Shown one piece after another: positions 2,571 through 44,856 of a DNA stretch of 54,326 nucleotides. The stretch spans positions 1 to 54,326 of the forward strand of contig JAVKHO010000019.1 of assembly GCA_031459915.1 (NCBI GenBank), written 5' to 3'. The position numbers and the translations under genes are program-made. Numbering within the stretch: the stretch's first letter is position 1; each line of letters opens with the position of its first letter. The DNA comes from Candidatus Tepidifontimicrobium thermophilum. Its GTDB lineage: Bacteria; Sysuimicrobiota; Sysuimicrobiia; Sysuimicrobiales; Sysuimicrobiaceae. The notes under the pieces were generated by a model. The model was not told the DNA's origin. It saw nothing but the letters and a program-made list of their open reading frames with translations, and did not search any database.

Positions 2571-3458
2571 GTGGAAGGTGGAGAGCGCGCCCTTGCCACG
2601 CAGACGAGAGAATCCCGATCCGGACGGCGGCGGTTCCTGAAGACCCTGGGCGCGGGAGCCGCGACCCTGCTGGCTCTGGAGGTGCTGGAGAGCACCGCAC
2701 GACCCGCAGAGGCCGCGCCCGCGGCACCACCTGCAGCGCTCCCGGCCGAGCGCCCTCAGGAGGACGTGCTCCTGCGTATGCAGCGAGATCTCCAGAGAGC
2801 CTTGCGCAAACCCGCCCACCTGCGGCGGTGGGCGATGGTCATCGACCTGCGCAAGTGCGTGGGGTGTAGCGCGTGCACCATTGCGTGCGTCGCCGAGAAC
2901 AAGTTGCCGCCCGGGGTCGTGTACCGGCCCGTGGTGGACGAGGAGATCGGGACGTACCCCCACGTAACCCGGCGATTCCTCCCGCGCCCCTGCATGCAGT
3001 GCGACAACCCGCCGTGCGTCCCCGTCTGTCCTGTGAACGCCACCTACAAACGGGCCGACGGGATCGTGGCCATCAACTACGACCAGTGCATCGGGTGCCG
3101 CTACTGCATCGTGGCCTGCCCGTACAACGCCCGCACCTTCGACGCGGGGGAGCACTACACGGACGGCACGCCGGGACGTAGCCCCGTGGAGGAGGTGCCC
3201 AACTTCGAGTACGGGAAGCCCTGGAAGCGGGAGGGGGACGCCTCCCCCGTGGGGAACGCGCGGAAGTGCCACTTCTGCCTGCACCGGCTGGAAGCCGGGA
3301 TGCTGCCGGAGTGCGTCACGAGCTGCATCGGCCGTGCCACGTACTTCGGCGACGCGGAGGACCCCGAGGCCTTGGTGAGCGAGCTCATGCACCGGCCCAA
3401 CGCGGTCCGGCTGAAAGAGGAGCTCGGGACCAAGCCCCGCGTGTACTACCTGCTGTGA
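2571..3458 (+). CDS. ttrB: Tat-exported 4x[4Fe-4S] electron-transfer subunit (TtrB/NrfC-like)
   Basis: SGRRRFLK Tat motif; [41 protein letters not shown]...C motifs. Confidence 0.75.
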
Positions 3459-3466
3459 GGTGGGGC

Positions 3467-4693
3467 ATGCGCAGACTCTTGTACGTGGTGTGGTTGGTGG
3501 CGTTCGGGCTGGGGCTGTGGGGCGTGGGGGAGCGCCTCGTGCTCGGGCACCGGTTGGCGGCGTACGGGTCCTACGTCGTGTGGGGTCTGTGGGTGTCCGT
3601 GTACATCTACCTGATCGGGCTTTCCGCGGGAGCGTTCCTCCTGTCGAGCCTGGTGTACGTGTTCCGGGTGGAGCGGCTGGAGCGGATCGGGAAGCTGGCT
3701 CTGTTCACGGCGGTGGTGACCCTGCTCACCGCGTTGCTGTCCATCTGGTTCGACCTGGGACACATGGAGCGTTTCTACCGCGTGTACACGAGCCCGAACT
3801 TCCGCTCCATGATGGCGTGGATGATCTGGTTGTACACAGGGTACTTCCTGGTGCTGCTGGGGGAGGCGTACCTCGCCTTTCGTCCCGACCTGGTCCGGTG
3901 GAGCCAGGAGGCCGGACGGAGCCGCCTGCAGCGGACGGTGGCGCGCTGGCTGACGTTGGGTCGTACCACCCTGGAGGGGGACGTCCTGGAGCGCGAGCGG
4001 AAGGTGCTCCAGGTCCTCGCCACGGTAGGTGTGCCGCTCGCGGTGGCGTTCCACGGAGGCGTAGGGGCGCTGTTCGCCACCGTGAGCGCGAAGATGTACT
4101 GGCACCAGTCCATCGTGCCCATCCTGTTCCTCACCGGGGCCCTGGTGAGCGGGGGAGGGTTGTTGACGGCGGTCGTGGCGTTCGCGTGGCCGCAGCGGGA
4201 CGGAGAGTACCGGGAGCTGGTGAGCCTGTTGGGCCGCGTCCTGCTCCTGCTGGTGGCGGTGGACGTGCTGCTGGAGTGGGCGGAGTTCTCCATCCCGCTG
4301 TGGTACGGCACGAGCCCTGAGGGTCACCTGCTGCAGGTCGTCCTGTTCGGGCCGTACTGGTGGGTCTTCTGGGTCCTGCACCTGGGGCTGGGAACGCTAG
4401 TTCCGGTGGTCCTCCTGGTCCTGCGGCCGCGGGACCCGGCGGCCGTGGGGTGGGCCGGGCTGCTGGTAGCGGCCACCTTCCTCAGCGTGCGGCTGAATGT
4501 CGTCATCCCTGCGCAGATCGAGCCCGCGCTGCGGGGGTTGGAACGGGCGTTCACCGGGCCGCGGCTGGTGTTCTCGTACGTCCCGAGCGTGCACGAGTGG
4601 CTGGTGACCCTCTTCGTCCTGGCCACCACCGCGGCCCTCCTGTGGTTGGGAGCGCGGCTTCTGCCCCTCATGGACACGGAGGTGGCGCGATGA
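3467..4693 (+). CDS. NrfD/PsrC-family membrane anchor (TtrC position)
   Basis: [30 protein letters not shown] motifs; about 10 hydrophobic segments; lies between the B and A subunits. Confidence 0.85.
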
Positions 4694-7600
4694 CGGAGCG
4701 CAACGGAGAGAACGGTAGGATAACGCGGCGCCAGCTGCTGAAGGCGGGGGCGCTGGTGGGCGGAGGGGCCCTGCTGGGCCAAGCGGGCAGACTGCTGGCC
4801 TCGGCTCAGGAGGTGGCGCAGAGTCCGGCCGTCCAGTACCCGCTGGCTCAGGCGGAGAACCAGCTGTACTCCTCCTGCCTCATGTGCAACACCGGCTGCG
4901 GCATCAAGGTGAAGGTGCTGGACGGGGTGGCGGCCAAGATCGACGGAAACCCCTACAACCCCTTCAACCTGGTGCCGCACGTGTCGTACAAGACCGCGCC
5001 GCACCAGGTAGCCGGAGTGGATGCGCCCCTGTGCCCGAAGGGACAGGCCGGGCTGCTGAGCGTGTATGACCCCTACCGCCTGCGGGTGGTCCTGAAGCGG
5101 GCGGGCCCCCGGGGCTCGAACAAATGGCGCACCATCCCCTTCGACCAGGCGGTGCGGGAGATCGTGGACGGCGGCAAGCTGTTCGCGGACATCGGCGAGG
5201 ACCGCCACGTGCCCGGGCTGCGCGAGCTGTGGGCCCTGCGGGACCCCAAGGTGGCCAAGGAGATGGACGCGTTCGTGCGGCGCATCCGGGCGGAGAAGGA
5301 CCCGGCGAAGAAGCAGGCCCTGGTGAGGGAGTTCCAGCAGACTTTCCGCGACCACCTGCACACGCTGATCGACCCCGACCATCCAGACCTTGGGCCCAAG
5401 AACAACCAGTTCCTGTACTTCTGGGGCCGCCAGAAGGCGGGAAGGACGGAGTTTGCGCGCCGGTTCGTACAGGAGAGCTTCGGGTCGGTCAACTTCCACG
5501 GCCACACCACCGTCTGCCAGGGGTCCCTGTACTTCGCCTGCAAGGCCATGAGCGAGCAGTACGAGTTCGACGAGAAAGACGGCAAGATGAAGTGGACGAA
5601 GGGCCGCAAGTTCTACTGGCAGGCGGACACCGAGCACAGTGAGTTCGTGGTCTTCGTGGGCGCTTCTCCCTTCGAGGGGAACTACGGACCCACCAACCGG
5701 GTGCCGCGCCTGACGGAGGGGCTGGCGACCGGACGGCTGAAGTTCGCGGTTGTGGACCCGCGGCTGTCCAAGACGGCGGCGAAGGCGTGGAAGTGGATTC
5801 CCGCAAGACCGGGAACCGAGGGCGCGCTGGCCCTGGCCGTGATCCGGTGGATCCTGGACCACCAGCGGTACGACGCCCGGTACCTGCGCAACGCCAACAA
5901 GGCCGCGGCGGAGGAGGACGGGGAGCCCACGTGGTGCAACGCCACCTGGCTGGTGAAGCTGGAGAAGGGTAGGCCGGAAGGGTTCCTGCGGGCCTCGGAC
6001 CTCGGGCTGCCGGTCCAGAAGCGCAGCCAGGAGGTCAAGGGCAAGCGGGTGGAGTACGAGTTCGACCCGTTCGTGGTGCTGCGGGATGGCAGGCCGGTCC
6101 CCTTCGACCCGTACGACGAGCAGAACCCCGTGGAGGGAGACCTTCTGGTGGACACGACCCTGAACGGGATCCGGGTGAAGAGTGGGCTGCAGCTGCTGGG
6201 GGAGGAGGCACGTCGGCACAGCCTGCAGGAGTGGGCGGAGATCTGCGGGGTGCGGGCGGAGGACATCGAAGAACTGGCCCGGGAGTTCACCAGCCACGGC
6301 AAGCGGGCGGCGGCAGACATCCACCGCGGGGTGAGCCAGCACACCAACGGGTTCTACAACGTGTGGGCGTGGATGACCCTGAACGTGCTGATCGGCAACC
6401 TGGACTGGAAGGGGGGCATGGCCTCCGCGAAGGTGTACGACCCGAGCGGCGAGAAGGAGGGGCAGCCCTTCAACCTGAAGGAGCTGCACCCGAAGCGCAC
6501 CACGCCCTTCGGGGTGAGCATCATCCGGCACGAGACGAAGTACGAGGAGTCCACGTTGTTCCGGGGCTATCCTGCGAAGCGGCCCTGGTACCCCCTGTCC
6601 AGCGACGTCTACCAGGAGATCGTTCCGTCCATCGGGGACGCCTACCCCTACCCCATCAAGATCGCGTTCCTGTACATGGGGTCGCCGGCCTACTCCCTGC
6701 CCGCAGGGCACACCACCATCGAGGTCCTGAAAGACCCGAACAAACTGCCGCTCTTCGTGGCCGTGGACATCACGGTGGGCGAGACGTCCATGTACGCGGA
6801 CTACATCCTGCCGGACCTGTCGTACCTGGAGCGGTGGGAGTTTCAGGGCAGCCACCCGAACATGACGGTGAAGGTGCAGCCCGTGCGGCAGCCGGTGATC
6901 CCGCCCGTGCCGGAGACCGTGCGGGTGTTCGGGGAGGAGATGCCGATTTCCCTGGAGGCGTTCCTGCTGGCGTGCGCGGAGCGGCTGGGGCTGCCCGGTT
7001 TCGGGAAGGACGGTTTCGGGCCGGGGCAGGACTTGCGGCGGCCGGAGGACTTCTACCTGAAGATGGTGGCCAACGTGGCGGCGGGTGACAGACCCGGGGA
7101 CGCGGTCCCGGACGCCTCCGACGAGGAGGTGCGCCTGTTCCTGCAGGCCCGCCGACACCTGCCGAAGAGTGTGTTCGATCCGGAGAAGTGGAAGCGGGCA
7201 GTGGGCGAAGCCTGGTGGCGGAAGGTCGTTTACGTGCTGAACCGGGGCGGCCGGTTCCAGGAGTACCAGAAGGCCTTCAAAGGGGAGCAGCTGGCGAACC
7301 AGTACGGCACCCTGGTCAGCATTTACTCGGAGAAGGTGGCGAAGACCAAGAACAGCATGACCGGCAAACCCTTCCCTGGGCTGCCGGCCTACATCCCCGC
7401 GCCGCGGGACGCCCTCGACCGGCCGGTGGAGGACGAGAAGGCAGGCTACGACCTGCACCTGATCACTTACCGGGAGGTGAGCCACACGAAGTCCCGGACC
7501 GGAACCAACTACTGGCTGCTGGCCCTGCTGCCCGAGAACTTCGTCCTCGTGCACCGGCAGGACGCGGAGCGCCTGGGCCTGAAAGACGGGGACTTGGTGC

Positions 7601-7929
7601 GGGTGACCTCCGCGAGCAACCCGGACGGCATGTGGCCGGTGCTGGACGGCCACAGCAAGCCTATGGTGGGCCGCGTCCGGGTTACGGAAGGGATCCGGCC
7701 GGGTGTGGTGGCGTTCTCCCTGGGCCACGGTCACTGGGCGTACGGGTCCGTGGACCTGGTGATCGACGGGAAGGTGCTGAAGGGCGACGCGCGGCGGGGC
7801 CGGGGGATCCACGCAAACGCCGCCATGCGGGTGGACCCCGTGTTGAAGAACGTGTGCCTGAGCGACCCCGCAGGGGCCAGCGCGGTGTTCTACGACACGC
7901 GGGTGAAGCTGGTGCGGGAAGCTTCCTGA
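4690..7929 (+). CDS. ttrA: Molybdo/tungsto-bis-PGD oxidoreductase catalytic subunit, tetrathionate reductase (TtrA/SrdA)-like
   Basis: TRRQLLK Tat motif; CLMCNTGC...GNPYNP...LCPKG FS0 motif; HTTVCQ Cys ligand; about 1080 aa and B-C-A gene order typical of the Ttr/Srd clade; substrate not proven. Confidence 0.7.
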
Positions 7930-7964
7930 GGCACGGCCGGCGCACGAGGGTGTCCTGCAAAGGA

Positions 7965-7987
7965 TGACGGACGGAACCGGTCCGTCA
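7965..7987. promoter_or_regulatory. Palindromic operator TGACGGAC-N7-GTCCGTCA (motif B)
   Basis: Perfect 8-7-8 inverted repeat upstream of the Arr/Arx-like operon; same ACGGAC-N7-GTCCGT core as 20021..20039. Confidence 0.55.
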
Positions 7988-8022
7988 AGTCGTTTATCCC
8001 TCGGGTCAAGAACGGATTGAGA

Positions 8023-8067
8023 ATCGGTTCCGTCCCCGACCCCGTCCCGTCCGGCGGCTCGTAGCAT
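8023..8067 (+). promoter_or_regulatory. Motif A site (ATCGGT-N6-CCCGAC) plus -10-like TAGCAT
   Basis: 18-bp site 8023-8040; TAGCAT starts at 8062, 39 nt after the site start. Confidence 0.55.
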
Positions 8068-8099
8068 GTCCTCTCAGAGACGGGACCGCGGGGTGCACG

Positions 8100-10664
8100 A
8101 TGAAGCTTACGCGACGGACGTTTCTGCGGACCTCTGTCGCCGCAAGCGGCAGCCTTCTGGCCGGGCGGCTGCTGTTCGGTGATCTGGAGACGCTCCGGGC
8201 AGCTCCGCGTGGCGTCCCCGGGGCCGTGGAGGAGTGGGTCCCGACCGCATGCTGGATCGGCAAACAGGACTGCGGGATGCTGGCGCGGCGCATCGACGGT
8301 CGCGTGGTGAAGCTGGTCGGCCACCCCGGCCACCCCCGCAACCGAGGGACGCTCTGCCCCAAGGGCGCAGCTCAGATCATGGCCCTCTACGACCCCAACC
8401 GGGTGAAGACGCCCCTGATCCGCACCAACGAGAAGGGAGTCCCCGGCCGGTGGCGGCAGGCCACCTGGGAGGAAGCCCTCACCTTGGTGGCGCAAAAAAT
8501 GCGGGAGGTTCGGGCCAAGGAGCCGAGCCTTCTTGTGTGGCAGAAGGGACGCAGCAAGGCCAAGGCCTTCTACGACGAGGCGTTCGTCAAGGCCACGGGT
8601 GCGACCAGGCTGCACCACGGGGCGTTCTGCTCGGACGCGGGGTACAGGGCAGGGGAGTACACCGTCGGGATCAGCGGCGTCCTGCATCCGGACTTCCGGC
8701 ACTGCCGCTACCTGCTGGCCTGGGGCTACAACCTCACCAACGCGGGGGGTAACCAGCTCTGCTGGATCACCTGGCCGCAGCAGCTCATCCAGGCAAGGGA
8801 GCGCGGGATGAAGGTAGTGGCCGTCGACCCGCGGCTGCGGGGAACGGCCCACTTCGCGGACGAGTGGCTGCCCATCCGGCCGGGCACGGACCTAGCGCTG
8901 GCGTTGGCCCTGTGCCACGAACTCATCGCCCTGGGAGCAGTAGACCGTGAGTACCTGGCCCGGTACACCAACGCGCCCTTTTTGGTCCAGGAGGACGGCT
9001 TTTTCCTCCGTCGCGAAGGCAAGGAGCAGGTGTGGGAGCTCCGGGCGGGTGGGCCGAGGCCTCATGACGCGGGGGACGCTTCGCCAGCCCTCGAAGGCAC
9101 CTTCGTGGCGGACGGGAAGCGTGTCAAGCCGGCCTTTCAGGTTCTGAAGGAGCACCTGGCCCGCTACACCCCCGAGTGGGCTTCCGAGGTGTGCGGGGTG
9201 CCCACGGAGCAGATCCGGCGGGTGGCCCGGGAGCTGGCGGAGAACGCCCGCATCGGGAGCACGGTGGTGGTGGATGGAGTCCGGATCCCATACCGGCCCG
9301 TGGCCATCATGGCCTACCACGTGAGCCAGCAGGAGCTGGGATTCCAAGCGGTCCGGGCCATGCTGCTGGTGGTGATGTTGCTGGGCGCGGTGGGAGCGGT
9401 TGGAGGTCAGCGGCTGGACGTCGGGCCGTGGAAGGTGCACGAGAACTTCGAGAAGCTGGAACACGTTGAGATCAAGGACCCTCCGTACAACGTGTGGCTG
9501 AAGGACTCCAAGTTCTTCCCCATCAACAGCAACAACTCCTCCATCGTCGCAAAGGTCATGCAGGATCCGCAAAAGTACGGGGTCAAGCAAATCCCCGAGA
9601 TGGTCATCGTGCACATGTCCAACCCCCTGGTGGCGTTTGCGTCCACTCCGGACCTGGAGGAGGCCTACCGGAAGTTCAAGTTCGTGGTGGTGATCGATCC
9701 CTGGCTGTCGCGGACCGCGGACCTATTTGCGGACGTGGTCCTGCCTGCCAGTACCCTGGAGAAGTACGAGGGCCCGCTGGCGGCCACGGACCAGTACGTG
9801 GACGCGGTGGCCCTGCGGGTGCCGGTGATGGAACCCCTGTTCCAGAGCCGGGGGGAGATCGAGATCTACCTGGACCTGTGCGAGAAGGCCGGGGTGCTCT
9901 ACGGGAAGGACGGCTACCTGGACCACCTGAACGAGGCCCTCAAGCTGAAGGAACCCTACCGGCTCCCGGTGGACCGGAAGCCCACGGTACGGGAGATCTT
10001 CGACCGCTGGGCCAAGTCGGAGGGGATTGCCGAAGGGGTGGCCTACTTCGAGAAGCACGGGGTGAAGATCAAGGGTGCGGTACCTGCCACCAAGTTCTAC
10101 GGGTACGCCACGGACCCGCCCTTCGGCGGGGTACGGCACCGGCTGTACGGGGAGGCGCTGCTCCGCTACCGGCTGGAGATGCGCGAGCGGGGAGTGCCGG
10201 AGATCTACTGGCGGGACTACACCCCGCTTCCTACCTGGCGGAAGCCCACCATGGAGGGCTCGCCACCGGAGTACGACCTGTACCTGGTGAGCTTCAAGCG
10301 GATCGAGCACAAGCAGTCGCGCTCCTCGCAGGTGCCGCTGCTGGCGGAGCTCGCCCGGCAGGCTTACGTGGAGATCAACCCCCGCACGGCGCGGGCGAAA
10401 GGGATCCGGGACGGGGAGCAGGTGTGGGTGGAGTCCCACAACGCGGTCACCGGGGAGACCCGTCGGGTGCGGGCGGTGGCACGCTACCGGGAAAGCATCC
10501 GCCCCGACACCGTCGCCATGCCCCACCACTTCGGGGGCGTCGCCCGACACCCGTGGGCCGACGGACAGGGGCCGTCCCCCAACTCCCTGTTCTTCACAGG
10601 AGAGGGCTACGTGGCCAACACCGCGGACCAGTCCTTCCACGTGAAGGTACGGGTTTACAAGTAG
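8100..10664 (+). CDS. Tat-exported molybdopterin oxidoreductase catalytic subunit, divergent ArrA/ArxA-like
   Basis: TRRTFLR Tat motif; C-X2-G-X3-C-X27-C FS0 motif; QKGRSK and HHGAFCSD at the positions of the Arr/Arx GR motif and Cys ligand; 854 aa. Confidence 0.75.
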   Translation: MKLTRRTFLRTSVAASGSLLAGRLLFGDLETLRAAPRGVPGAVEEWVPTACWIGKQDCGMLARRIDGRVVKLVGHPGHPRNRGTLCPKGAAQIMALYDPNRVKTPLIRTNEKGVPGRWRQATWEEALTLVAQKMREVRAKEPSLLVWQKGRSKAKAFYDEAFVKATGATRLHHGAFCSDAGYRAGEYTVGISGVLHPDFRHCRYLLAWGYNLTNAGGNQLCWITWPQQLIQARERGMKVVAVDPRLRGTAHFADEWLPIRPGTDLALALALCHELIALGAVDREYLARYTNAPFLVQEDGFFLRREGKEQVWELRAGGPRPHDAGDASPALEGTFVADGKRVKPAFQVLKEHLARYTPEWASEVCGVPTEQIRRVARELAENARIGSTVVVDGVRIPYRPVAIMAYHVSQQELGFQAVRAMLLVVMLLGAVGAVGGQRLDVGPWKVHENFEKLEHVEIKDPPYNVWLKDSKFFPINSNNSSIVAKVMQDPQKYGVKQIPEMVIVHMSNPLVAFASTPDLEEAYRKFKFVVVIDPWLSRTADLFADVVLPASTLEKYEGPLAATDQYVDAVALRVPVMEPLFQSRGEIEIYLDLCEKAGVLYGKDGYLDHLNEALKLKEPYRLPVDRKPTVREIFDRWAKSEGIAEGVAYFEKHGVKIKGAVPATKFYGYATDPPFGGVRHRLYGEALLRYRLEMRERGVPEIYWRDYTPLPTWRKPTMEGSPPEYDLYLVSFKRIEHKQSRSSQVPLLAELARQAYVEINPRTARAKGIRDGEQVWVESHNAVTGETRRVRAVARYRESIRPDTVAMPHHFGGVARHPWADGQGPSPNSLFFTGEGYVANTADQSFHVKVRVYK

Positions 10665-10673
10665 GAGGTCGGG

Positions 10674-11411
10674 ATGCCGCGCTACGCCATGGTGGTCGAC
10701 CTGGACCGGTGCATGGGGTGCCGCGCTTGCATGGAGGCCTGCAAGGTAGAGAACAACACCCCCACCGCGGCCTTCTGGATGTACGTGTTCCGGTTCGAGG
10801 AGGGCGAGTATCCCAACACGTACATCTGGTTCATGCCGCGGCCCTGCATGCACTGCGACAACCCGCCGTGCGCCAAGGTGTGCCCGGTGGGCGCGCGGTA
10901 CAAGCGGGAGGACGGGTTGGTGGCCACGGACTGGGACCGGTGCATCGGCTGCCGCTACTGCGAGGTGGCCTGCCCGTACGGAGTGAACTACTTCAACTGG
11001 AAGGAGCCGGTGCGGAACTACTACCTGGACTGGGGTGAGCGCGACGTGCGGCGGGTGACGAACGGGCAGACCCCGCCCTACCGGAATCCCGACCTGGATC
11101 GGCCGTACGGGGAGGAGAAGCGCCGGGTGGCGGGTGGGGGGCGGCTCAAGGGGGTGGTGGAGAAGTGCACCTTCTGCGTGCAGCGGGTGGAGGAGGGGCT
11201 GCAGCCCGCGTGCGTCGCAAACTGCCCCGCGTTCGCGCTGCACTTCGGGGACCTGGAGGACCCGCAGAGCAGTGTCTCCCAGGTGCTGGGCCGGAAGCAC
11301 TCCTGGCGCCTGCTGGAGGAGCTGGGGACCGAGCCCCGGGTGTACTACGTGGGCGCCCACCCGGCGCACCCCGAGAGCCGGCAGATCGAGGAAGTAAAAG
11401 CGAGGGTGTAG
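10674..11411 (+). CDS. 4x[4Fe-4S] subunit, ArrB/ArxB-like
   Basis: Four Cys clusters; no signal peptide; insertion with PPYRNPD between clusters 3 and 4 resembles ArrB/ArxB. Confidence 0.8.
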   Translation: MPRYAMVVDLDRCMGCRACMEACKVENNTPTAAFWMYVFRFEEGEYPNTYIWFMPRPCMHCDNPPCAKVCPVGARYKREDGLVATDWDRCIGCRYCEVACPYGVNYFNWKEPVRNYYLDWGERDVRRVTNGQTPPYRNPDLDRPYGEEKRRVAGGGRLKGVVEKCTFCVQRVEEGLQPACVANCPAFALHFGDLEDPQSSVSQVLGRKHSWRLLEELGTEPRVYYVGAHPAHPESRQIEEVKARV

Positions 11412-11413
11412 CC

Positions 11414-12901
11414 ATGAGCGTACAGGTCCAGCGACTGCCTTACGGAGTGGGCCGGTTCCAGGTGGGCTTCTGGCTGTTCATCCTGGTCCTTCTGAGCGTG
11501 GTGGGCTGGGGAATCTACGCGTACTCCCGCCAGCTCGTGGAGGGGCTGGTGGTGACAGGCCTACGGGACATCGGGACCATGGGCGGGGCCGCCTGGGGCC
11601 TGTACATCGCCTTCGATGTGTACTTCGTGGGCGTGAGCTTCGCGGGCATCACCATGGCGGCCCTGATCCGGCTGCTGCGCCTGGAGGAGCTCAGGCCGGT
11701 GTCGCGCATGGCCGAGCTGCTGACCATCGTGGCTTTGGTCCTGGCGGCCTTCAGCGTCCTGCCGGACCTGGGCCAGCCCGTGCGGGGCATCGTGAACCTG
11801 TTGCGGTACGCGCGGCCGCAGTCCCCCTTCTTCGGCACGTTCACCCTGGTGATCTCCGGCTACCTGTTCGCCAGTCTGGTCTACTTTTACCTGGACGGGC
11901 GCCGAGACGCCGCCCTGCTGGCGCGGATCCCGAGCCCCCTGCAGGGCTTCTACCGCCTGTGGGCTGCAGGCTACCGGGATACCCCGGCGGAGCGCGAGCG
12001 GCACCACCGCGCCGCCTTCTGGCTCGCCATCGCCATCGTGCCTTTGCTGGTGACCGCCCACTCCACCTTGGGGTTCGTGTTCGGGATCCAGTCGGGCCGG
12101 CCTGGCTGGTTCAGCACGCTGCAGGCCCCTGCTTTCGTGGTGATGGCTGGCGTGTCGGGGATCGGGCTGCTGCTGGTGATCGCCGCGGTGTTTCGGCACG
12201 TGCTAGGCGAGCGGGAACGGCTGCACGAGGCGATCTTCCGGTGGCTGGGGGGTCTGCTGGCGCTCCTGGTGCTCGTTTATCTCTACTTCACGGTGGCCGA
12301 GCTACTGACCACCACGTACACGGGTCACGAGACGGAGGTCCGGCTGACGCTGGCGCTGCTCACCGGACCGTACGCCTGGCTCTTCTGGGTCAGCATGGGG
12401 GCACTGGTGCTAGGCCTGGTGGCGCTGCTCCTGCCCTACGTACCCTCTGTGGTGCCCGTGCGCGTGCCCTCCTTCCGGCCGGCCTTCACGCGTGCAGCCG
12501 GTCTGGCGGCGGCGGGCGCGGGACTGCTGCTGATGATCCACCGCCACGGCCCCCGCCTGGCTCCCGCAGCCGGAGCCGGGCCCGAACCCGAATGGGTGGG
12601 GTGGGTGCTGGCAGGTCTGGCGGTGGTGTTCGTCCTGTCGTGGTTTCCTCTGTTTGCCCGGAGCGTGGTGGCCGCGGGCGTGGCGGGAGGTTTGCTGGTG
12701 AACGTGGCCGCGGTGGGCAAGCGGCTGCTCATCGTGGTGCCCTCGCAGACGCACGGGACGCTGCTGCCGTATGGCCCCGGGTCGTACACGCCCACCTGGG
12801 TGGAGTACAGCGTCGTGGCCGGCCTGTTCGCGCTCGGCACGCTGCTGTACACCCTGTTCGTGAAGGTGTTCCCCATCATGGAGGTTGCGGAGGAACAATG
12901 A
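11414..12901 (+). CDS. NrfD/PsrC-family quinol-interacting membrane subunit (ArxC-like), enlarged
   Basis: WGLYIAFDVYFVGVS, DLGQP, QSPF, HSTLG, YTPTWVE motifs. Confidence 0.85.
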   Translation: MSVQVQRLPYGVGRFQVGFWLFILVLLSVVGWGIYAYSRQLVEGLVVTGLRDIGTMGGAAWGLYIAFDVYFVGVSFAGITMAALIRLLRLEELRPVSRMAELLTIVALVLAAFSVLPDLGQPVRGIVNLLRYARPQSPFFGTFTLVISGYLFASLVYFYLDGRRDAALLARIPSPLQGFYRLWAAGYRDTPAERERHHRAAFWLAIAIVPLLVTAHSTLGFVFGIQSGRPGWFSTLQAPAFVVMAGVSGIGLLLVIAAVFRHVLGERERLHEAIFRWLGGLLALLVLVYLYFTVAELLTTTYTGHETEVRLTLALLTGPYAWLFWVSMGALVLGLVALLLPYVPSVVPVRVPSFRPAFTRAAGLAAAGAGLLLMIHRHGPRLAPAAGAGPEPEWVGWVLAGLAVVFVLSWFPLFARSVVAAGVAGGLLVNVAAVGKRLLIVVPSQTHGTLLPYGPGSYTPTWVEYSVVAGLFALGTLLYTLFVKVFPIMEVAEEQ

Positions 12902-13134
12902 TGCGGGCGGCGTGGACGCTGCTGTTGGTGGTGGCGGGTTTTGCCCTGCAGGCGGTGAGTTACTTCTTCCTAGCGGCGCCCCTGGGGGTGCCCACCGGCC
13001 CCGTGTACAGCAACCCGCGGGTACCCTTCGCCCCGGCCGTGTTCATCCTCGGGGTGATGCTGGTGTTCCTGGCCGCGGTGGTCTACGAGTTGCTGCCGGA
13101 GTCCGGCGGGCGGACGCATCGGGGAACGGGATGA
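12898..13134 (+). CDS. Small two-helix membrane protein, unknown function
   Basis: 78 aa with two hydrophobic helices around SNPRVPFAP; ATGA overlaps with both neighbours. Confidence 0.7.
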   Translation: MMRAAWTLLLVVAGFALQAVSYFFLAAPLGVPTGPVYSNPRVPFAPAVFILGVMLVFLAAVVYELLPESGGRTHRGTG

Positions 13135-13787
13135 AAGCCCTGGCGCAGCTGCGACAGGCCATCTACCGGCTACTGGCCGCGCTGTTCCTGTACCCTACGG
13201 AGGCTCGGCGCCGCGCCCTGGTGGAGGTCCCGCGGGTCCTCGAGCCGGAGCGGGTCCTGGCAGCTTTCCCCTTCTTCCTGCCGTGGGAGCGCCTGCTGCG
13301 CGCCCTCGCCGACCTGCCGGCTAGCACGGTCCTCCAGGAGGAATACGTGCGTCTGTTCACCCCGGGCTTTGACGGCTGCCGCTGTGCTCCCTACGAGTCC
13401 GCTTACCACTGCGGGCAGGGTGGGTCCGCGAGTTGGCTGTGTGCGGAGCTGGAACGGGAGTACGCCTTCGTGGGTCTGGCCCTGTCGAACGACCCGCACG
13501 AGCCTGCGGACCACCTGGCGGTGGAGCTCGAGTACATGGCCTTTCTGTGCGGGCGGGAGGCGGAGGCGTGGGAACGCGGGACCGCAGAAGCCCGGGAGCT
13601 CCTCGGACGGGAGCGGAACTTCCTGAACCGACACCTGGTCCGGTGGGTTCCGGAGTTCGCTCGGTCCCTGCAGGACCAGGAAGCCGCGGCGGTCTACCGG
13701 GCCGGTGCGGCGGCCTGCGAGGCGTTCGTGCTGCAGGACTTGGACCTGGTGTGCCTTTTCAGCCGGATCCAGGAGGCGCGTCGGTGA
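13131..13787 (+). CDS. TorD/DmsD-family molybdoenzyme chaperone
   Basis: EYVRLF, PYESAY, EPADHLAVELEYM, HLVRW motifs. Confidence 0.9.
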   Translation: MKALAQLRQAIYRLLAALFLYPTEARRRALVEVPRVLEPERVLAAFPFFLPWERLLRALADLPASTVLQEEYVRLFTPGFDGCRCAPYESAYHCGQGGSASWLCAELEREYAFVGLALSNDPHEPADHLAVELEYMAFLCGREAEAWERGTAEARELLGRERNFLNRHLVRWVPEFARSLQDQEAAAVYRAGAAACEAFVLQDLDLVCLFSRIQEARR

Positions 13788-15346
13788 CGGCGCAGCCAGC
13801 TGCAGTCTTGATATGCGCGGACGTGGCGCGGGCAAGCCGGGTGAACCTGACCGCGGTGGAGGCGTGGCTCCAGAGGACAGACCCCCACGCGGTCGTGCGG
13901 GTCGCCGCTGGCCTGTGCGAGGGGAGAGGGGACCTCGAGTCCGTCCTGGCGCGGGACGGCGCCGGGCGGGCGGTTCTGGGGCTCTGCGGGGACGGGTACG
14001 ACGAACGCGAGCTGCAGTCCCAGTTGCGGCAGGCGGGGATCGATCCGCTGAGCGCGAGTGCGGTACGGCTAGGGCGCTGGTGCGCGGGCCTGCCGCCGGA
14101 GGCCGCCACGGAAAAAGCGAAGGTGATGCTCGCGGCGGCGGTGGCCGCGGCCCGGGCGTCCGGGGGCAGCACCGTCGCCAACGCGAAGCCGTACTTCCCC
14201 GCCCGGGGAAGCCGCCGGTCCTTCCTGCGGTTCCCTGTGCCGGCCTACCGCGTGGTCCCCTCGGTGGACGGGAGTCGTTGTGCTGCGTCCGCCGGCTGCT
14301 CCCTGTGCGTGGAAGCGTGCCCGTTCGGGGCGCTGTCGGTAGCGGACGGGCGGATCGAGCTGGACAAGGACGGCTGCGAGGGTTGCGGGCGGTGCGTCAG
14401 CGCCTGTCCCCGGGAGGCCTTCCACTTCCCGGGGTACAACCCGAAGGAAGTGGAAGCCCGGGTGCGGGTTCTGCTGGACCCGGAGGTCAGCGCCATCCAG
14501 CCGAGGGGCATCCTGTTCGTGTGCGCCTGCGCGTCCCCACTGCCATTCCTGGAGGCCGGCTGGATGCCCGTGGAGCTTCCGTGCGCCGCTATGCTGCCCG
14601 CGCACTGGCTGCTGGCGCCCCTGCTGCTGGGTGCGGTAGCTGTTGGGGTTGTGCCGTGCGAGAGACAGGGCAGCACGGGCTGCGGGCCCGCCGTCCTCCA
14701 GAAGGTGGACTTCTGCCAGGCGTTGCTCCGGCGGGCGGGGAGGCCCGCGGAGCTGGTGCGCAGCCATCCGCCCGCAGAGCAACCGCCGGGGATGGAACTC
14801 CCCGAGCCCCTCCCGCGGGCGAACGGGGAGGTCAGGTTCCAGCTGCGCCCCGAGGCTGTGGCGGCGGTGCTGTTGCGCTTTGTAGGTCATGGGGGTACCT
14901 CCGCGTGGGAGCACCCCGGCTGCCCGCTGGGCCTGGTGGAGATCAACCCAGCTACGTGCACGGGCTGCGGGATGTGCGCGATCGCGTGTCCCTCGGAGGC
15001 TCTGCAGTACGGAGAGGCAGACGGCGAGGCGTGGGTGCGCTTTGACCCGGCGCGGTGCACCGCCTGCGGGCTGTGCGTGTCCAGGTGTCCGGAGCAGGCG
15101 CGGGGGGCCATTCACGTGAGCCGGCGCCTGGACCCCGAGTCCCTGCGGGCAGGGAGCGGGCAGCTCCTTCGGACACCCCTGAGGCGGTGTGTGGCCTGCG
15201 GCGCACCCGTGGCGCCCGCGCTCATGCTGAATCGGGTACTGGAGTTGCTAGGGGAGGACGGCATCCAGCTGCAGCGGGTCCTCACCCAGTACTGCCCGTC
15301 CTGCAGGCCGCTGTGGGGGGCCCGGGAGGAGGCTCGGCGTGGGTAG
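13784..15346 (+). CDS. Cys-rich polyferredoxin (HdrA-N-like + 4Fe-4S pairs + MvhD-like segment)
   Basis: CSLCVEACP, CEGCGRCVSACP, CTGCGMCAIACP, CTACGLCVSRCP, CVACG...CPSC; GTGA overlap with torD. Confidence 0.75.
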   Translation: MTAQPAAVLICADVARASRVNLTAVEAWLQRTDPHAVVRVAAGLCEGRGDLESVLARDGAGRAVLGLCGDGYDERELQSQLRQAGIDPLSASAVRLGRWCAGLPPEAATEKAKVMLAAAVAAARASGGSTVANAKPYFPARGSRRSFLRFPVPAYRVVPSVDGSRCAASAGCSLCVEACPFGALSVADGRIELDKDGCEGCGRCVSACPREAFHFPGYNPKEVEARVRVLLDPEVSAIQPRGILFVCACASPLPFLEAGWMPVELPCAAMLPAHWLLAPLLLGAVAVGVVPCERQGSTGCGPAVLQKVDFCQALLRRAGRPAELVRSHPPAEQPPGMELPEPLPRANGEVRFQLRPEAVAAVLLRFVGHGGTSAWEHPGCPLGLVEINPATCTGCGMCAIACPSEALQYGEADGEAWVRFDPARCTACGLCVSRCPEQARGAIHVSRRLDPESLRAGSGQLLRTPLRRCVACGAPVAPALMLNRVLELLGEDGIQLQRVLTQYCPSCRPLWGAREEARRG

Positions 15347-15833
15347 GAGGCCGGAAAGGAAGGCGCGAAGGCGTGGGATCTGGGCCCTGGCGGTCGTCGC
15401 CGCTGTGGCGGGGCTCGCGGTGGCGTGGGTGGCGTGGCAGGGCAGCCGGTCCACGGCCCCGGCGGGTGCGCGGCTGACCGTGTACCAGAACCCGCGCTGC
15501 GGCTGCTGCGGTGCGTACGTGAGCTACCTCCGTGGGGCGGGCTACGCGGTCGGGGTGGTGAAGACAGAGGAGATGGAGGGGGTCAAGCGGCGGTACCGGG
15601 TGCCGCAGCAGCTCTGGAGCTGTCACACGGCAGTGGCGGGCCGGTACTTCGTGGAGGGGCACGTGCCGGTGGAGGCGGTGCAGGAACTGCTGCGGCGGGC
15701 CCCGGACTGGCTGGGGCTCGCGCTTCCCGGCATGCCCAGTGGTTCTCCGGGCATGTCAGGCCCTCGGGAAGGACCTCTGGTGGTTCAGGCCGTCACGCGG
15801 GAAGGTCTGTGGCGCGAGTTCGGCAGGTTCTGA
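15339..15833 (+). CDS. DUF411/CopG-like exported metal-binding protein
   Basis: N-terminal TM helix; CGCC, SCHT, EGHVP and PGMPSGSPGM motifs. Confidence 0.85.
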   Translation: MGRRPERKARRRGIWALAVVAAVAGLAVAWVAWQGSRSTAPAGARLTVYQNPRCGCCGAYVSYLRGAGYAVGVVKTEEMEGVKRRYRVPQQLWSCHTAVAGRYFVEGHVPVEAVQELLRRAPDWLGLALPGMPSGSPGMSGPREGPLVVQAVTREGLWREFGRF

Positions 15834-16090
15834 GCCGAGGATATAACCTGCCAGCACGATCCCATGACCGCCGAACCCGCTGATCTGCACCTCCCCGGGA
15901 CGGCATCACATCCTCGGAGGTTGCGGCTTGCCGAGCAACTGCCTTAGGAGACGCTCGATCTCCGCCCTCGGGTGGTGGTGTTGCCCTCCTGGGGTGGGCA
16001 CCCTTCGGGCAAAAGCCCTCTGGGAGGCGCATTTTATAGCGATGTTGGTTTAAGCCGCTTGCACCAACGGCCCCCGGACGCCTGGGGGGA

Positions 16091-20089: not shown

Positions 20090-20569
20090 ATGCGGTTCAC
20101 CCGGGAAGCAGAGTACGCCCTGCGGGCGCTAGCCTACCTCGCCTCCGTACCGTCCGGGCAGGTCCGGCCCGCCAACCAGGTAGCCGACGCGTGCGGGCTT
20201 CCGGGCCCGTTCCTCAGCAAGACGTTGCGCAAGCTGGCCCGCAGCGGCCTGCTGCGCTCCGCCCGGGGCCGCAGCCGCGGTTACGGGCTGGCCCGGAGCC
20301 CGGGGGAGATCAGCGTTCGGGAGATCCTGGAGGCGGTGGAGGGTGCCGACGCCTTCCGCCGGTGCGTGTTCTGGGACGCGGGCTGCTCCGAGGACCACCC
20401 GTGCGTCCTGCACCCCGCCTGGGCAGGGGTCCGGGCTAGCCTCCTCGCCAACCTGGAGCGCATGACCCTCGAGGATGTCAGGGCCGCGTGGTGGGCCAGA
20501 GACCCCCCCGTGGGGTGGGGCGAGCTCGCTGGTCGGAAAATCCAGAGGACGAAGGGAGGTGGACCATGA
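20090..20569 (+). CDS. Rrf2-family Fe-S transcriptional regulator
   Basis: EYALRAL, winged-helix GYGLARSP, C-X6-C-X5-C-X2-H cluster ligands. Confidence 0.9.
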   Translation: MRFTREAEYALRALAYLASVPSGQVRPANQVADACGLPGPFLSKTLRKLARSGLLRSARGRSRGYGLARSPGEISVREILEAVEGADAFRRCVFWDAGCSEDHPCVLHPAWAGVRASLLANLERMTLEDVRAAWWARDPPVGWGELAGRKIQRTKGGGP

Positions 20570-22539
20570 GGTGGAGTCGGCTTGCGTCGCTGGTGGTAGT
20601 GATGCTGGCGCTGGTGCTGGCAGGAGCTTTGGCGGGGCAGGCGCAGCGCAGCACTACGCTGCCCCAGGACGTCCAGAGCCTCATCGAGGCGAAGGGGCTC
20701 ACGCCGGACCAGGTCCGGGCAGCCATCCAGACGTACGTGCCGCCCGGCAAGTACGACGAGTACCTGATGTTCTCGTCCGGAGGCCAGGGCGGCCAGGTGC
20801 TGGTGTTCGGCGTCCCGTCCATGCGCCTGCTCCGGGTGATCGGGGTGTTCGCGCCTGAGCCCTGGCAGGGCTACGGCGTGGGCTCCGAGGAGACGGAGAC
20901 CATCCTGAACTGGCGGACCAAGGACCCGCGCCTGGCTTGGGGGGACACCCACCACCCGGCCCTCAGCGAGACCAACGGGGAGTACGACGGCAAGTGGCTG
21001 TTCATCAACGACAAGGCGGGAAGCCGCATCGCGGTCATCGACCTTCGGGACTTCGCCACGAAGCAGATCGTGCAGAACCCCAACGCGGTCAGCAACCACG
21101 GCGCCGTGGTGAGCCCCAACACGGAGTACGTGCTGGAGGTGACCCAGTACGCGGGTCCCTTCCCCTTCCGGTACGTGCCCCTGACGCAGGAGAACTACAA
21201 CCGGCACTTCCGGGGCCTGGCGACCTTCTGGAAGTTTGACCGGGGCAAGGGGCGCATCGACGTGAGCAAATCCTTCCAGATCGAGCTGCCGCCCTACTGG
21301 CAGGACCTGGCGGACTTCGGAAAGCTGGAGAGCTACGGCTGGGCCTTCTGGAACTCCTTCAACAGCGAGCGGGCCATCGGGGGCACCCTGGAGAAGAAGC
21401 CGCCCGTGGAGGTCGGCGCCAGTGCCCGGGACATGGACTACCTCCACATCGTGAACTGGAAGCGGGCCGAGGAGCTCGTGGCCCAGGGGAAGTACACCGT
21501 GATCAACGGGATGAAGGTGATCCGCCTGAAGGACGCCGTGGAGGCGGGGATTCTGTACCTGGCGCCGGAGCCCAAGAGCCCCCACGGCCTGGACGTGGCC
21601 CCGCGGGGCGACTACATCGTGGTGGGCGGGAAGCTGGACCCGAACGCCACCGTGTACAGCTTCCGCAAGATCCAGGAGGCCATCCGCAGCAAGGCCTTCA
21701 GCGGCCGGGACGACTACGGGATCCCCATCCTGAAGTTCGACGCGGTGGTGGCCGCCCAGGTGAAGCTCGGACTCGGGCCGCTGCACACCATGTTCGACGA
21801 CAAGGGCAACGCGTACACGAGCCTGTTCCTGGACAGCGCAGTGGCCAAGTGGACTCTGGGACCGCCGTACAACCCGCCGGAGCGCGCGTGGAAGCTGGTG
21901 CAGAAGCTGCCGGTGCAGTACAACATCGGACACCTGACCGCGGTGGAAGGCGACACCACGAAGCCCGGCGGGAAGTACCTGGTCGCCCTGAACAAGTGGT
22001 CCGTGGACCAGTACCGGAACGTGGGTCCCCTGCTGCCGCAGAACTTCCAGCTCGTGGACATCAGCGGCGAGGAGATGAAGCTGCTGAGCAACACGCCCGT
22101 CGGGATCGGGGAACCGCACCTGGCGCAGATCGTCCGAATGGACCGGGTGAAGAGCTGGGAGGTCTACCCGGCCGGCACCAACCCGCTCACGATGCGGCCG
22201 GACCCCAACGCGGTGAAGGCCGGGCAGCAGCGGATCGTACGGGAGGGGCGGACGGTGCGCGTGTACATGACCGCCATGCGGAGCCACTACGTCCCGGACC
22301 GCGTCCGGGTGAAGCGGGGCGACACGGTGATCTTCCACATCACCAACATCGAGCGAACCAAGGACGCGATCCACGGGTTCGCCATCGACCGGCACAACGT
22401 GAACCTGAGCCTGGAGCCTGGGAAGACGGAGACGGTGGTGCTCCGGGCGGAGCGGCCGGGCGTGTACCCATTCTACTGCACGGAGTTCTGCTCGGCGCTG
22501 CACCTGGAGATGATGGGCTACCTGGAGATCGAACCGTAG
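20566..22539 (+). CDS. nosZ: Sec-dependent (clade II) nitrous oxide reductase
   Basis: Sec-type signal with no RR motif; CuZ His motifs DTHH, NHG, PHG, GPLH, IGH, EPH; CuA motif CTEFCSALHLEM. Confidence 0.96.
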   Translation: MRWSRLASLVVVMLALVLAGALAGQAQRSTTLPQDVQSLIEAKGLTPDQVRAAIQTYVPPGKYDEYLMFSSGGQGGQVLVFGVPSMRLLRVIGVFAPEPWQGYGVGSEETETILNWRTKDPRLAWGDTHHPALSETNGEYDGKWLFINDKAGSRIAVIDLRDFATKQIVQNPNAVSNHGAVVSPNTEYVLEVTQYAGPFPFRYVPLTQENYNRHFRGLATFWKFDRGKGRIDVSKSFQIELPPYWQDLADFGKLESYGWAFWNSFNSERAIGGTLEKKPPVEVGASARDMDYLHIVNWKRAEELVAQGKYTVINGMKVIRLKDAVEAGILYLAPEPKSPHGLDVAPRGDYIVVGGKLDPNATVYSFRKIQEAIRSKAFSGRDDYGIPILKFDAVVAAQVKLGLGPLHTMFDDKGNAYTSLFLDSAVAKWTLGPPYNPPERAWKLVQKLPVQYNIGHLTAVEGDTTKPGGKYLVALNKWSVDQYRNVGPLLPQNFQLVDISGEEMKLLSNTPVGIGEPHLAQIVRMDRVKSWEVYPAGTNPLTMRPDPNAVKAGQQRIVREGRTVRVYMTAMRSHYVPDRVRVKRGDTVIFHITNIERTKDAIHGFAIDRHNVNLSLEPGKTETVVLRAERPGVYPFYCTEFCSALHLEMMGYLEIEP

Positions 22540-22543
22540 GGAA

Positions 22544-22584
22544 GGCGGGGGGGGCGGGCACCGCCCGCCTCCCCGCCGAGTTTT
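22544..22584 (+). terminator. GC-rich hairpin with short U tract between nosZ and nosB
   Basis: GGCGGGGGGGGCGGGC-ACC-GCCCGCCTCCCCGCC followed by GAGTTTT. Confidence 0.55.
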
Positions 22585-22598
22585 GAGGAGGTGCGGAA

Positions 22599-23219
22599 GT
22601 GCGCAGTCCCAAGGTGCGGGCAGGCAGAGGGGCGGTGGGGATGCCGCTGCTGGCGGCGGTGTTGCTGGCAGCCTCGCTGGTCCTGCCCTACTGGCAGCTG
22701 ACCCTGTACGCACCCCAGTACCCGGGCGGCCTGAGGGTGTTCGTGCACCTCACCCACGTGGCAGGGGATGCCCAGGAGGTAACGACCCTGAACCACTACA
22801 TCGGGATGAAGCCCCTGGAGGAGGCCGCGCCCGTGGAGCGCGCGGTGGCCGTCCCCGTGGTGTTGGTGTTCGGGGCGCTGGCGGTCCTGTCCGGTACCCT
22901 GCGGGGCCCCTGGCGGTGGCTGCTGCGTCTGCCCCTGGTCCTGTTCCCCCTGGGGTTCTTCGCGGACCTGGCTGCGTGGCTCTGGTACTACGGCCACTCC
23001 ATGGACCCCGCGGCACCCATCCGGCTGGAACCCTTCATGCCCGCCATCCTGGGCCGTGGGGTGATCGCGCAGTTCCGGACAGTTGCGAGCTTCCACGTAG
23101 GGTTCTACCTGGCCCTGGCGGCGAGCCTGGTGGCCCTGTACGACCTGTGGCGGAAGCGGGTCCAGCAGGAAAGGGTGCCCGTACGGATCGGCGGGCCGGC
23201 GGAGGTGGCCGCCCGGTGA
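22599..23219 (+). CDS. nosB: NosB-like membrane protein of clade II nos clusters
   Basis: W..LYAPQYPGGL, LNHYIGM, WYYGHSMDP motifs; 4 TM segments; directly after nosZ. Confidence 0.85.
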   Translation: MRSPKVRAGRGAVGMPLLAAVLLAASLVLPYWQLTLYAPQYPGGLRVFVHLTHVAGDAQEVTTLNHYIGMKPLEEAAPVERAVAVPVVLVFGALAVLSGTLRGPWRWLLRLPLVLFPLGFFADLAAWLWYYGHSMDPAAPIRLEPFMPAILGRGVIAQFRTVASFHVGFYLALAASLVALYDLWRKRVQQERVPVRIGGPAEVAAR

Positions 23220-24568: not shown

Positions 24569-25410
24569 TCGCCTGGCGCAGTGTCACCGTGCGGTACCGG
24601 GACCGCGTGGTGGTGGACCAGGTGTCCCTGGAGGTGCCGTCCGGGCAGCGGGTGGCCCTGGTCGGCCCCAACGGGGCGGGCAAGACCACGCTGTTGCGGA
24701 CCCTGGTGGGCTTGGTGCCGTATGAGGGCACCGTGGAGGTGGACGGCTTAGACGCTCGCCTCGAGCCTGTGGAGGCCCGGCGCCGCATCGGCTACGTCCC
24801 GCAGCTGATGAGCTTCCCCCAGCACCTGACCGCGGCGGAGGTGGTAGCGCTGGCACAGGAACTACGGGGAGCAGTGCCCGACCCTGCGCCGCTTCTGCGG
24901 GAGGCAGGCCTGACAGAACACGCCCGCAAACCCGTGCGGGAACTGTCCGGCGGTATGCTCCGTCGCCTCGGGGTCGCGGTGGCACAGGTGGCCGACCCTC
25001 CGGTCCTGGTACTGGACGAGCCCACCAGCTACCTGGACCGCGAAGGCGAGGCCAGGCTGGTCCAGTGGCTGCAGGCCGCCGCGGGGAAGAAGACGGTGGT
25101 GGTCGCCAGCCACCAGCTCCGCGGCCTGGACCGGCTGGTAGACCGCGTGGTGGTACTGGACCAGGGGCGCGTGGTACGCGACCTGCCGGCGGAGCAGTTG
25201 CGTGCGCTGCACTGGCTTGAGGTGGTGGTGCCGCTGCCGGCGCCTGGGGAGCTGCCGGAGGAGGTGCGGGTGGTGGCGCGGCGCAATGGCGCGGTGCACC
25301 TTCGGGTGCCGGACCACCGGCTGCGGGAGGTCCTCGACGCCCTGGAGGGCCGGCCGGTGCAGGTGCACGAGCCGCCGGTAGAGGACCTGCTCCGGGAGGT
25401 GCTGGGGTGA
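24565..25410 (+). CDS. nosF: ABC transporter ATPase NosF
   Basis: GPNGAGKTT, LSGGM, LDEPT; position in the nos cluster. Confidence 0.88.
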   Translation: MIAWRSVTVRYRDRVVVDQVSLEVPSGQRVALVGPNGAGKTTLLRTLVGLVPYEGTVEVDGLDARLEPVEARRRIGYVPQLMSFPQHLTAAEVVALAQELRGAVPDPAPLLREAGLTEHARKPVRELSGGMLRRLGVAVAQVADPPVLVLDEPTSYLDREGEARLVQWLQAAAGKKTVVVASHQLRGLDRLVDRVVVLDQGRVVRDLPAEQLRALHWLEVVVPLPAPGELPEEVRVVARRNGAVHLRVPDHRLREVLDALEGRPVQVHEPPVEDLLREVLG

Positions 25411-32807: not shown

Positions 32808-32815
32808 GGGCCCTC

Positions 32816-33529: not shown

Positions 33530-33534
33530 CTCCC

Positions 33535-35589: not shown

Positions 35590-35627
35590 TGCGGCCCCAT
35601 TTCAACCCGGCCCGCGGTGGGTTGTCT

Positions 35628-35641
35628 TTGCGCGGGGTCAA
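35628..35641 (-). promoter_or_regulatory. Crp/Fnr (DNR/NnrR-type) box TTGCG-N4-GTCAA
   Basis: Resembles TTGAT-N4-ATCAA; centred about 45 nt upstream of the DUF1858 ATG. Confidence 0.55.
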
Positions 35642-44852: not shown

Positions 44853-44856
44853 GCGG

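Follow-up and report, generated by a model that had tools for sequence, protein, structure and literature searches.

A widespread A-B-NrfD molybdoenzyme operon with its own active-site pocket and a three-cysteine FS0 motif in Candidatus Tepidifontimicrobium thermophilum

Introduction

What kind of enzyme is encoded by an operon whose catalytic subunit aligns with ArrA at the active-site pocket and forms, together with its relatives, a clade outside Arr/Arx, and on which compound would it act? The operon in question lies at positions 8100 to 15833 of contig JAVKHO010000019.1 (assembly GCA_031459915.1) from Candidatus Tepidifontimicrobium thermophilum (Sysuimicrobiota), a stretch of 54,326 nucleotides that is called here the window. 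A first-pass annotation had described it as an uncharacterised molybdoenzyme operon of a sister lineage of Arr/Arx. Our analysis places it in a widespread, conserved, respiratory membrane-bound molybdoenzyme type, which resembles Arr, Psr and Soe in layout and is a member of none of them. Its most unusual feature, absent from the first-pass annotation, is a three-cysteine iron-sulfur site FS0; as for the substrate, reduction of an arsenic-group oxyanion is our leading guess, and a tentative one.

Operon layout, distribution and transcription

A protein search gave 1255 matches among 8000 scored candidates, the best 120 of these 1255 being 66-100% identical, and a genome scan, in which 378 of 448 stretches were confirmed, returned 74 loci. 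These span Chloroflexota, Sysuimicrobiota/Armatimonadota, Methylomirabilota, Actinomycetota, Nitrospinota, Bacillota and several archaea. A Candidatus Sysuimicrobium calidum record includes a fragment of 98% identity, and the family is patchy in the order of the host, where 14 of 61 genomes carry the gene. The features of the operon are given below with the number of loci that carry each gene, counts which are affected by the many loci that end at contig ends.

8100..10664, + strand: subunit A (catalytic), 854 aa, with Molybdopterin, Molydop_binding and Molybdop_Fe4S4 domains and a twin-arginine translocation (Tat) signal, TRRTFLR
8250..8273, + strand: bases encoding residues 51-58, CWIGKQDC, the FS0 motif
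8538..8558, + strand: WQKGRSK, aligning with ArrA RGRY 163-166
8613..8636, + strand: HHGAFCSD, aligning with ArrA H189...C193 and SoeA HGGFCS
10674..11411, + strand: subunit B, 245 aa, 16 Cys, Fer4, four predicted [4Fe-4S] clusters (Pfam/NCBIfam; 68/74 loci)
11414..12901, + strand: NrfD-type membrane anchor C, 495 aa, about 12 hydrophobic segments, invariant K436-R437 (56/74 loci)
12898..13134, + strand: small conserved two-helix membrane protein (45/74 loci)
13131..13787, + strand: TorD/NarJ-type chaperone, PF02613 (55/74 loci)
13784..15346, + strand: polyferredoxin, 520 aa, 31 Cys (45/74 family loci; 4/12 ArrA-like loci)
15339..15833, + strand: DUF411 membrane-anchored protein, PF04214, overlapping the operon (2/74 loci)

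Pfam and NCBIfam profiles bear out the gene order A-B-NrfD-small transmembrane (TM) protein-TorD-polyferredoxin-DUF411 that had been proposed, and the description of the genes as mostly translationally coupled holds, because the gaps at the junctions from A through DUF411 are short or overlapping (+9, +2, -4, -4, -4 and -8 bases). From the locus counts, a core of six genes therefore emerges, in which B, C, TorD, the small TM protein and the polyferredoxin are frequent companions of A, while DUF411 was rejected as a core part. The small TM protein gave no Pfam or NCBIfam match and, judging by its synteny, is probably a fourth subunit. The polyferredoxin, in whose sequence a signal peptide was not seen, is probably a cytoplasmic maturation or electron-supply factor; it was ruled out as an ArxB2 orthologue, since the match covers a ferredoxin stretch of 71 aa only, at 41%. 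Three A domains, B, NrfD and the chaperone place the operon in the dimethyl sulfoxide (DMSO) reductase/complex iron-sulfur molybdoenzyme (CISM) superfamily, and the domains, Tat motif and partner genes support the earlier prediction of a Tat-exported, NrfD-anchored oxyanion oxidoreductase with a predicted Mo/W-bisPGD centre (PGD, pyranopterin guanine dinucleotide). Some variation was observed among the loci: eight of them are without the NrfD anchor (L011, L019, L023, L054, L055, L057, L063 and L064), some of these having instead a small unassigned membrane protein between B and TorD, and three (L047, L053 and L056) have an additional small open reading frame (ORF) between A and B.

Near-identical strains transcribe the operon. 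The RNA evidence comes from four (X1, X4, X5 and X6) out of 7 listed runs, and the conclusion is drawn from the stranded hot-spring metatranscriptome X6, in which sense reads of at least 95% identity cover 8111-15923 at 7-42x, with antisense at 0-4x; beyond 15924, at the minus-strand genes, the signal changes strand. Contigs of run X1 match parts of the operon, and runs X4 and X5 were uninformative, with 7 and 2 reads, respectively.

The FS0 site and the pocket of the catalytic subunit

At FS0, subunit A reads C51-W-I-G-K-Q-D-C58...C86, with Gly in place of the second Cys of the C-x2-C-x3-C found in the reference enzymes. The pattern C-x2-G-x3-C was matched in 189 of 196 family sequences (120 protein matches and 76 locus ORFs, sets that overlap and include some fragments), the remaining 7 giving no pattern match, and a loop cysteine, C221 (GGNxxC), is kept in 191 of the 196. 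Of the 117 representatives that could be scored after clustering at 50%, the 11 that carry C-x2-G-x3-C all have a loop Cys, down to 30% identity (the script had put one of these 11 into a separate bin), as against 11/106 without that pattern, in which it sits at scattered positions. The association counts as one event and not as a statistic, because the 11 form a single clade. The GGNxxC loop presumably lies near FS0, as in other structures of the superfamily, and C221 is the more likely candidate for a replacement ligand. Alternatively, D/E57 may ligate the cluster, or the site may hold a [3Fe-4S] or non-Cys-ligated cluster.

The pocket motifs named by the first-pass annotation, WQKGRSK and HHGAFCSD, were found in the catalytic ORF, where they supply K149-G-R151-S-K153, H173 and the predicted Mo ligand C177. 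QKGR[S/G]K is carried by 188 of the 196 family sequences and is thus not a chance motif; the Tat motif pattern was matched in 155. Alignment to the ArrA structure 6CZ7, with the ArrA pocket residues taken from a figure legend (PMC13685797), keeps R165, H189 and C193 as R151, H173 and C177 and turns ArrA S190 into G174. The claim of a pocket of its own is upheld. GRSK and H...C align with ArrA R163-Y166, H189 and C193, and the pocket differs from all sampled references. Subunit A has neither the ArrA (R/K)GRY at 163-166, reading KGRS there, nor the ArxA motif XGRGWG. The pattern G-R...H...C is common to SoeA, Arr/Arx and the Srd/Ttr-like enzyme encoded directly upstream, and does not occur in PhsA or PsrA. 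Since SoeA and the Srd/Ttr-like neighbour have this triad too, it is not arsenic-specific; we infer that pockets of this kind may serve oxygen-atom transfer on XO3/XO4 couples in general. Two near relatives, P0127 and P0132, appear to be without the Mo-ligand Cys (SESLGAA and DSLGEAA) and are possibly non-catalytic or differently ligated forms.

Phylogenetic placement

The reference set included ArxA of ORIO and skB26, RGRY-bearing ArrA-like loci, PhsA, TtrA, SoeA-type sequences, DmsA and FdhA. The ArrA-like references score 930-1197 bits on the ArrA hidden Markov model (HMM) NF041714, none above 1600, and the SoeA references are plasmid homologues picked for their GRDQ...HGGFCS motif, which resembles that of Aquifex, and for an adjacent xsc gene. 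In trees without AnrA and SrrA references, built with FastTree on 69 sequences and with IQ-TREE on 51 (to shorten the run, 20 rows were removed and 2 added; 719 columns), the family forms its own clade (support 1.0 and 99.7, respectively), outside Arr/Arx and beside unnamed clades. It nests in none of the sampled characterised clades. Approximately unbiased (AU) tests, made with short searches under a single-matrix model, rejected the grouping of the family with Arr/Arx (p=0.0014, and p=0.0007 in a further search), with Psr/Phs (p=0.004) and with Ttr (p=0.019). The grouping with SoeA (p=0.086) was the sole constrained tree not rejected, and the maximum-likelihood (ML) tree does not pair the two as sisters.

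Two insertions, one of about 60 aa at 286-346 and IGST...PYRP near 385-400, are common to the family, SoeA and the neighbour clades (one of them large and mostly non-Tat); both are absent from Arr/Arx and PhsA, and Ttr/Srd-like enzymes are without the second. On the strict family profile, SoeA scores 255-266 bits, PhsA 217, ArxA 183-195 and ArrA 159-188, while some unnamed deep Arr/Arx relatives reach 233-279. Conversely, subunit A gave 143 bits on NF041714 (cut-off 1600), 265 bits on the PhsA HMM, its best NCBIfam match (cut-off 694), and 72 bits on the TtrA HMM, its gene order being A-B-C and not B-C-A. Its best PDB sequence match is PsrA of Thermus (2VPZ; 158 bits), and its identity is about 30% to SoeA and 25-27% to Arr/Arx. 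The deep Arr/Arx relatives P0249, P0258, P0264, L112 and L113 form a separate clade with support 100. Neither names nor informative neighbours were found for the nearest sister clade, P0131/P0166, and ESM Atlas gave generic Psr/Phs-type names only. The description as a sister lineage of Arr/Arx is therefore abandoned on the strength of the ML tree, the AU tests, the higher score of SoeA and the two insertions.

Sensor and arsenic-gene context

The neighbourhoods of related loci count in favour of an arsenic-group substrate. A PhnD-fold gene is present in 25 of the 74 loci, one being plain PhnD. The other 24 proteins keep the AioX arsenite-binding Cys together with the Tyr/His/Asp pocket positions, and these ArrX-like sensors adjoin the operon in the company of a HisKA_3 kinase, a response regulator or both. 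One family-linked X protein, searched against the PDB, gave 198 bits to ArrX, 154 to AioX and 82 to PtxB, and the family-linked X proteins intermix with ArrX of ArrA-like loci. In the ligand panel described in PMC5908839, arsenic oxyanions were ligands of AioX, ArxX and ArrX, the last of which took phosphate too, and no Sb, Se or S ligand tried there was bound. A 2026 preprint (10.64898/2026.01.21.700959) likewise mentions arrXSR-like genes upstream of Methanoperedens 'sreA', in a related sreABC. The six core genes recur in Natronorubrum, where those of a homologue of 35% identity lie in an ars neighbourhood made up of arsR, an arsC-like phosphatase gene and arsDA, and acr3 was found in 4/74 family loci, compared with 1/12 ArrA-like loci and 1/38 control regions.

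Proposed function and alternative explanations

Taken together, A, B and C, probably with the small TM protein, would form a respiratory membrane complex on the outer face of the cytoplasmic membrane. In the cytoplasm, TorD would mature A, probably along with the polyferredoxin, after which A and B would cross the membrane folded via Tat and dock on C. There C would oxidise menaquinol and pass the electrons through the four clusters of B and the modified FS0, completed by C221 (more likely) or as a [3Fe-4S]/non-Cys-ligated cluster, to the Cys177-ligated Mo/W-bisPGD, which would abstract oxygen from a small oxyanion bound in a positively charged pocket (K149, R151, K153, H173 and R183). The most probable substrate, although at less than even odds, is an arsenic-group oxyanion: arsenate, a thioarsenate or antimonate would serve as the terminal acceptor. 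Going by redox potentials, a menaquinone-linked enzyme would reduce As(V), Sb(V) and Se(VI) and oxidise sulfite. The host genome, which is 96% complete, has menB over the cut-off with a UbiA/MenA prenyltransferase gene adjacent, and futalosine genes were not found in it. The architecture, a membrane-bound and periplasm-facing A-B-C respiratory complex, is very probable, and oxygen transfer on an oxyanion is likely. The complete proposal, namely an independent respiratory reductase of the arsenic group (arsenate, thioarsenate or antimonate) that has no relationship to Arr/Arx inside the superfamily, escapes arrA markers, spans Chloroflexota, Sysuimicrobiota, Methylomirabilota, Actinomycetota, Methanoperedens and haloarchaea and has a distant loop Cys in place of the lost FS0 ligand, is doubtful as a whole.

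Several observations weigh against arsenic-group reduction. The closest characterised lineage, SoeA/bacterial SreA (bSreA), is a sulfur enzyme, and at the places of ArrA Y166, K198 and Y210 subunit A has S152, Y182 and V194. In the host genome, an ArrX-type sensor was not found, the sole candidate being the PhnD of a phnCDE-type ABC transporter, and Acr3, ArsB and ArsP were not matched. Acr3 is in 0/14 family-bearing genomes of the order and in 9/61 overall; the chance of zero overlap is 0.08, for genomes that are kin and not independent. The sensor was also examined in a reverse control, in which X was searched in 401 Chloroflexota genomes, giving 35 carriers; 38 of 40 matches were used, the seed genome and one fragment being left out. 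The 38 regions comprised 23 with a Srd/Ttr-like enzyme of the kind that precedes the family operon in the window (the commonest neighbour, often with FmdE-like and arsP genes), 3 Psr-like, 1 of the family, 0 ArrA/ArxA and 11 with no catalytic subunit in view, and in 33 of them X matched the Cys pattern. It follows that the X sensor marks no known arsenic enzyme and moves between enzymes, and its value as proof of an arsenic substrate is weakened. Yet the control cuts both ways: the sensor singles out neither the family nor a proven arsenic enzyme, while arsP occurs in five control regions, which are closely related, and an archaeal arsenate reductase belongs to the Ttr/Srd clade.

The main rival to arsenic-group reduction is a periplasm-facing SoeABC counterpart, which would oxidise sulfite to sulfate, or act on a related sulfur oxyanion, and pass electrons to menaquinone. 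The pocket of SoeA and Aquifex SreA (GRDQ...HGGFCS) is approached by the HHGGFCSD variant found in 12 of the 196 family members, both insertions are common to SoeA, which is also the top-scoring characterised reference and the grouping that the AU test does not reject, sulfite oxidation with menaquinone as acceptor is downhill, and the arsenic exporters missing from the host agree with it. On the other hand, the identity to SoeA stays at about 30%, the two are not sisters in the ML tree, and no sulfur-handling gene recurs near the operon, rhodanese being in 2/74 loci and in 0 of the 23 cluster representatives scanned. ArrX-type sensors, moreover, bound no sulfate, thiosulfate or tetrathionate in the panel of PMC5908839, to which sulfite did not belong. 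We regard sulfite oxidation as unlikely, below the arsenic proposal.

Slightly less probable again is another oxyanion (selenate, selenite, tellurite, phosphite or a halogen oxyanion) or an unconsidered substrate, with the adjacent Srd/Ttr-like enzyme perhaps acting in the same series. A Srd/Ttr-like operon adjoins the family operon in the window, in L017 and in L020, and elsewhere uses the same XSR and FmdE-like neighbours; besides, the pocket is unlike all sampled references and the nearest neighbour clades are uncharacterised. Adjacency, however, amounts to 3/75, a Srd-like gene accompanies the family gene in only 6 of the 14 genomes that carry it in the order, and no selenium- or phosphite-specific gene was seen near the loci.

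A sulfur/polysulfide reductase, as the printed label SreABC would have it, is improbable. Leu et al. 2020 (PMC7327174), in the part concerned, list Candidatus Methanoperedens ASW-1_01618 and ASW-3_00934 as SreA by clustering with Aquifex SreA, and the top NCBIfam and PDB sequence matches of subunit A are PhsA and PsrA. Nevertheless, the relevant passages of Wells et al. 2023 (PMC10100899) group bacterial SreA with the cytoplasmic SoeA, as do those of PMC8076601, and the SreA label does not transfer to the family because Aquifex SreA sits in this cytoplasmic bSreA/SoeA lineage; the PhsA score far below cut-off, the AU rejection of Psr/Phs and the lack of a G-R pocket in Psr/Phs point the same way. 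Finally, a deep-branching Arr/Arx sister with an altered pocket, suggested by the K-G-R and H...C alignment with ArrA and by an A-B-C-D, ferredoxin and XSR arrangement as in arx clusters, is highly improbable given the AU tests, the insertions missing from Arr/Arx, the low identity and ArrA HMM score, and the separate clade of true deep Arr/Arx relatives.

The upstream operon and the rest of the window

Two features precede the operon.

2571..7929, + strand: separate Srd/Ttr-like B-C-A molybdoenzyme operon, 515 bits on the TtrA HMM (cut-off 1750), grouping with TtrA
7965..7987, + strand: perfect hairpin between the upstream B-C-A operon and gene A, terminator-like or an operator

The upstream enzyme has the pocket WGRQK...HGHTTVCQG, its operon is transcribed more strongly than the family operon in X6, and it is a candidate for an alternative arsenate or selenate reductase. 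Ten RNA molecules end at 7950 (clustered RNA ends), near the hairpin; a motif resembling the hairpin lies near 8022-8035, likewise in the stretch 7930-8099, and no sigma-70 promoter match was obtained within 7850-8150. In L154, L159 and L160, X-S-R is followed by a B-C-A operon of another Psr-like clade with the motif HSNLCDVSRK, and L160 has acr3 and arsR too. The host encodes another Cys-ligand molybdoenzyme (G000:C10:54922-58137), with the pocket VGRP...HTNVCSSS, which is long-branched in the tree.

Elsewhere, the window looks like a respiratory island of Mo enzymes, NosZ and an oxidase. It carries an Rrf2 regulator, the nitrous oxide reductase NosZ (PF18764) and probable nosD/F/Y at 20090-26234 (+), and haem-copper oxidase subunits II, I and III-like (COX1 match) at 44061-47451 (+). 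Hemerythrin/DUF2249, an Mrp-type ATPase, DUF364, a Crp/Fnr regulator, a CopD-like protein and unassigned multi-TM genes lie at 31701-39276.

Significance

The family is found in hot springs and aquifers as well as in sediments and oxygen-poor seas, under a label borrowed from a cytoplasmic enzyme, and the sulfur-reductase label already underpins claims of sulfur-dependent methane oxidation. If arsenic-group reduction is true, arrA-based surveys overlook a group of arsenic mobilisers; if sulfite oxidation is true, the enzyme is an outward-facing counterpart of Soe. Either way, the three-cysteine FS0 with its candidate replacement ligand offers a testable electron-relay variant, and a distant homologue has a cultured carrier, Natronorubrum bangense.

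Whether the enzyme is new, as the first-pass annotation suggested, has a divided answer. Neither an assay of the family nor a reference to its FS0 motif turned up in the literature searched, whose scope excluded most subscription journals and bioRxiv supplements, or when one small published supplement was searched for motifs; members, on the other side, are already in print as putative SreABC.

Comparison with known systems

These printed members belong to the same family. QKGRSK and H-G-A-[F/Y]-C-S-D are in both Methanoperedens proteins and CWIGKQDC is in ASW-3_00934, in keeping with the family signature of QKGRSK, H-G-x-[F/Y]-C-S-D and GGNxxC[W/F]. The SreABC label is phylogenetic, no assay standing in the passages that give it, and the N-terminus of ASW-1_01618 differs (MCWNTC), so that this protein is possibly chimeric.

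PsrABC (Thermus, 2VPZ) and PhsABC have the same A-B-C layout, with a different pocket, no insertions and scores below cut-off. In the ArrX/AioX/ArxX modules, the Cys and the pocket positions are those kept by the family-linked X, although X is absent from this host. ArrAB (Shewanella ANA-3, 6CZ7) and ArxAB (ORIO, skB26) are alike in their Tat-exported, Cys-ligated A, four-cluster B, NrfD, TorD and R165/H189/C193, as well as in the XSR regulation seen in family relatives; they differ in that Y166/K198/Y210 are not kept in the family, which has no RGRY or GRGWG, an FS0 without Cys2 and a clade of its own. SoeABC and bacterial SreABC (Allochromatium, Aquifex) have in common with the family the G-R and H-G-x-F-C-S pocket and the two insertions, but SoeA is cytoplasmic, without a Tat signal, and has the canonical CxxCxxxC and a DmsC-type anchor, whereas the family has a Tat motif, NrfD and the three-Cys FS0.

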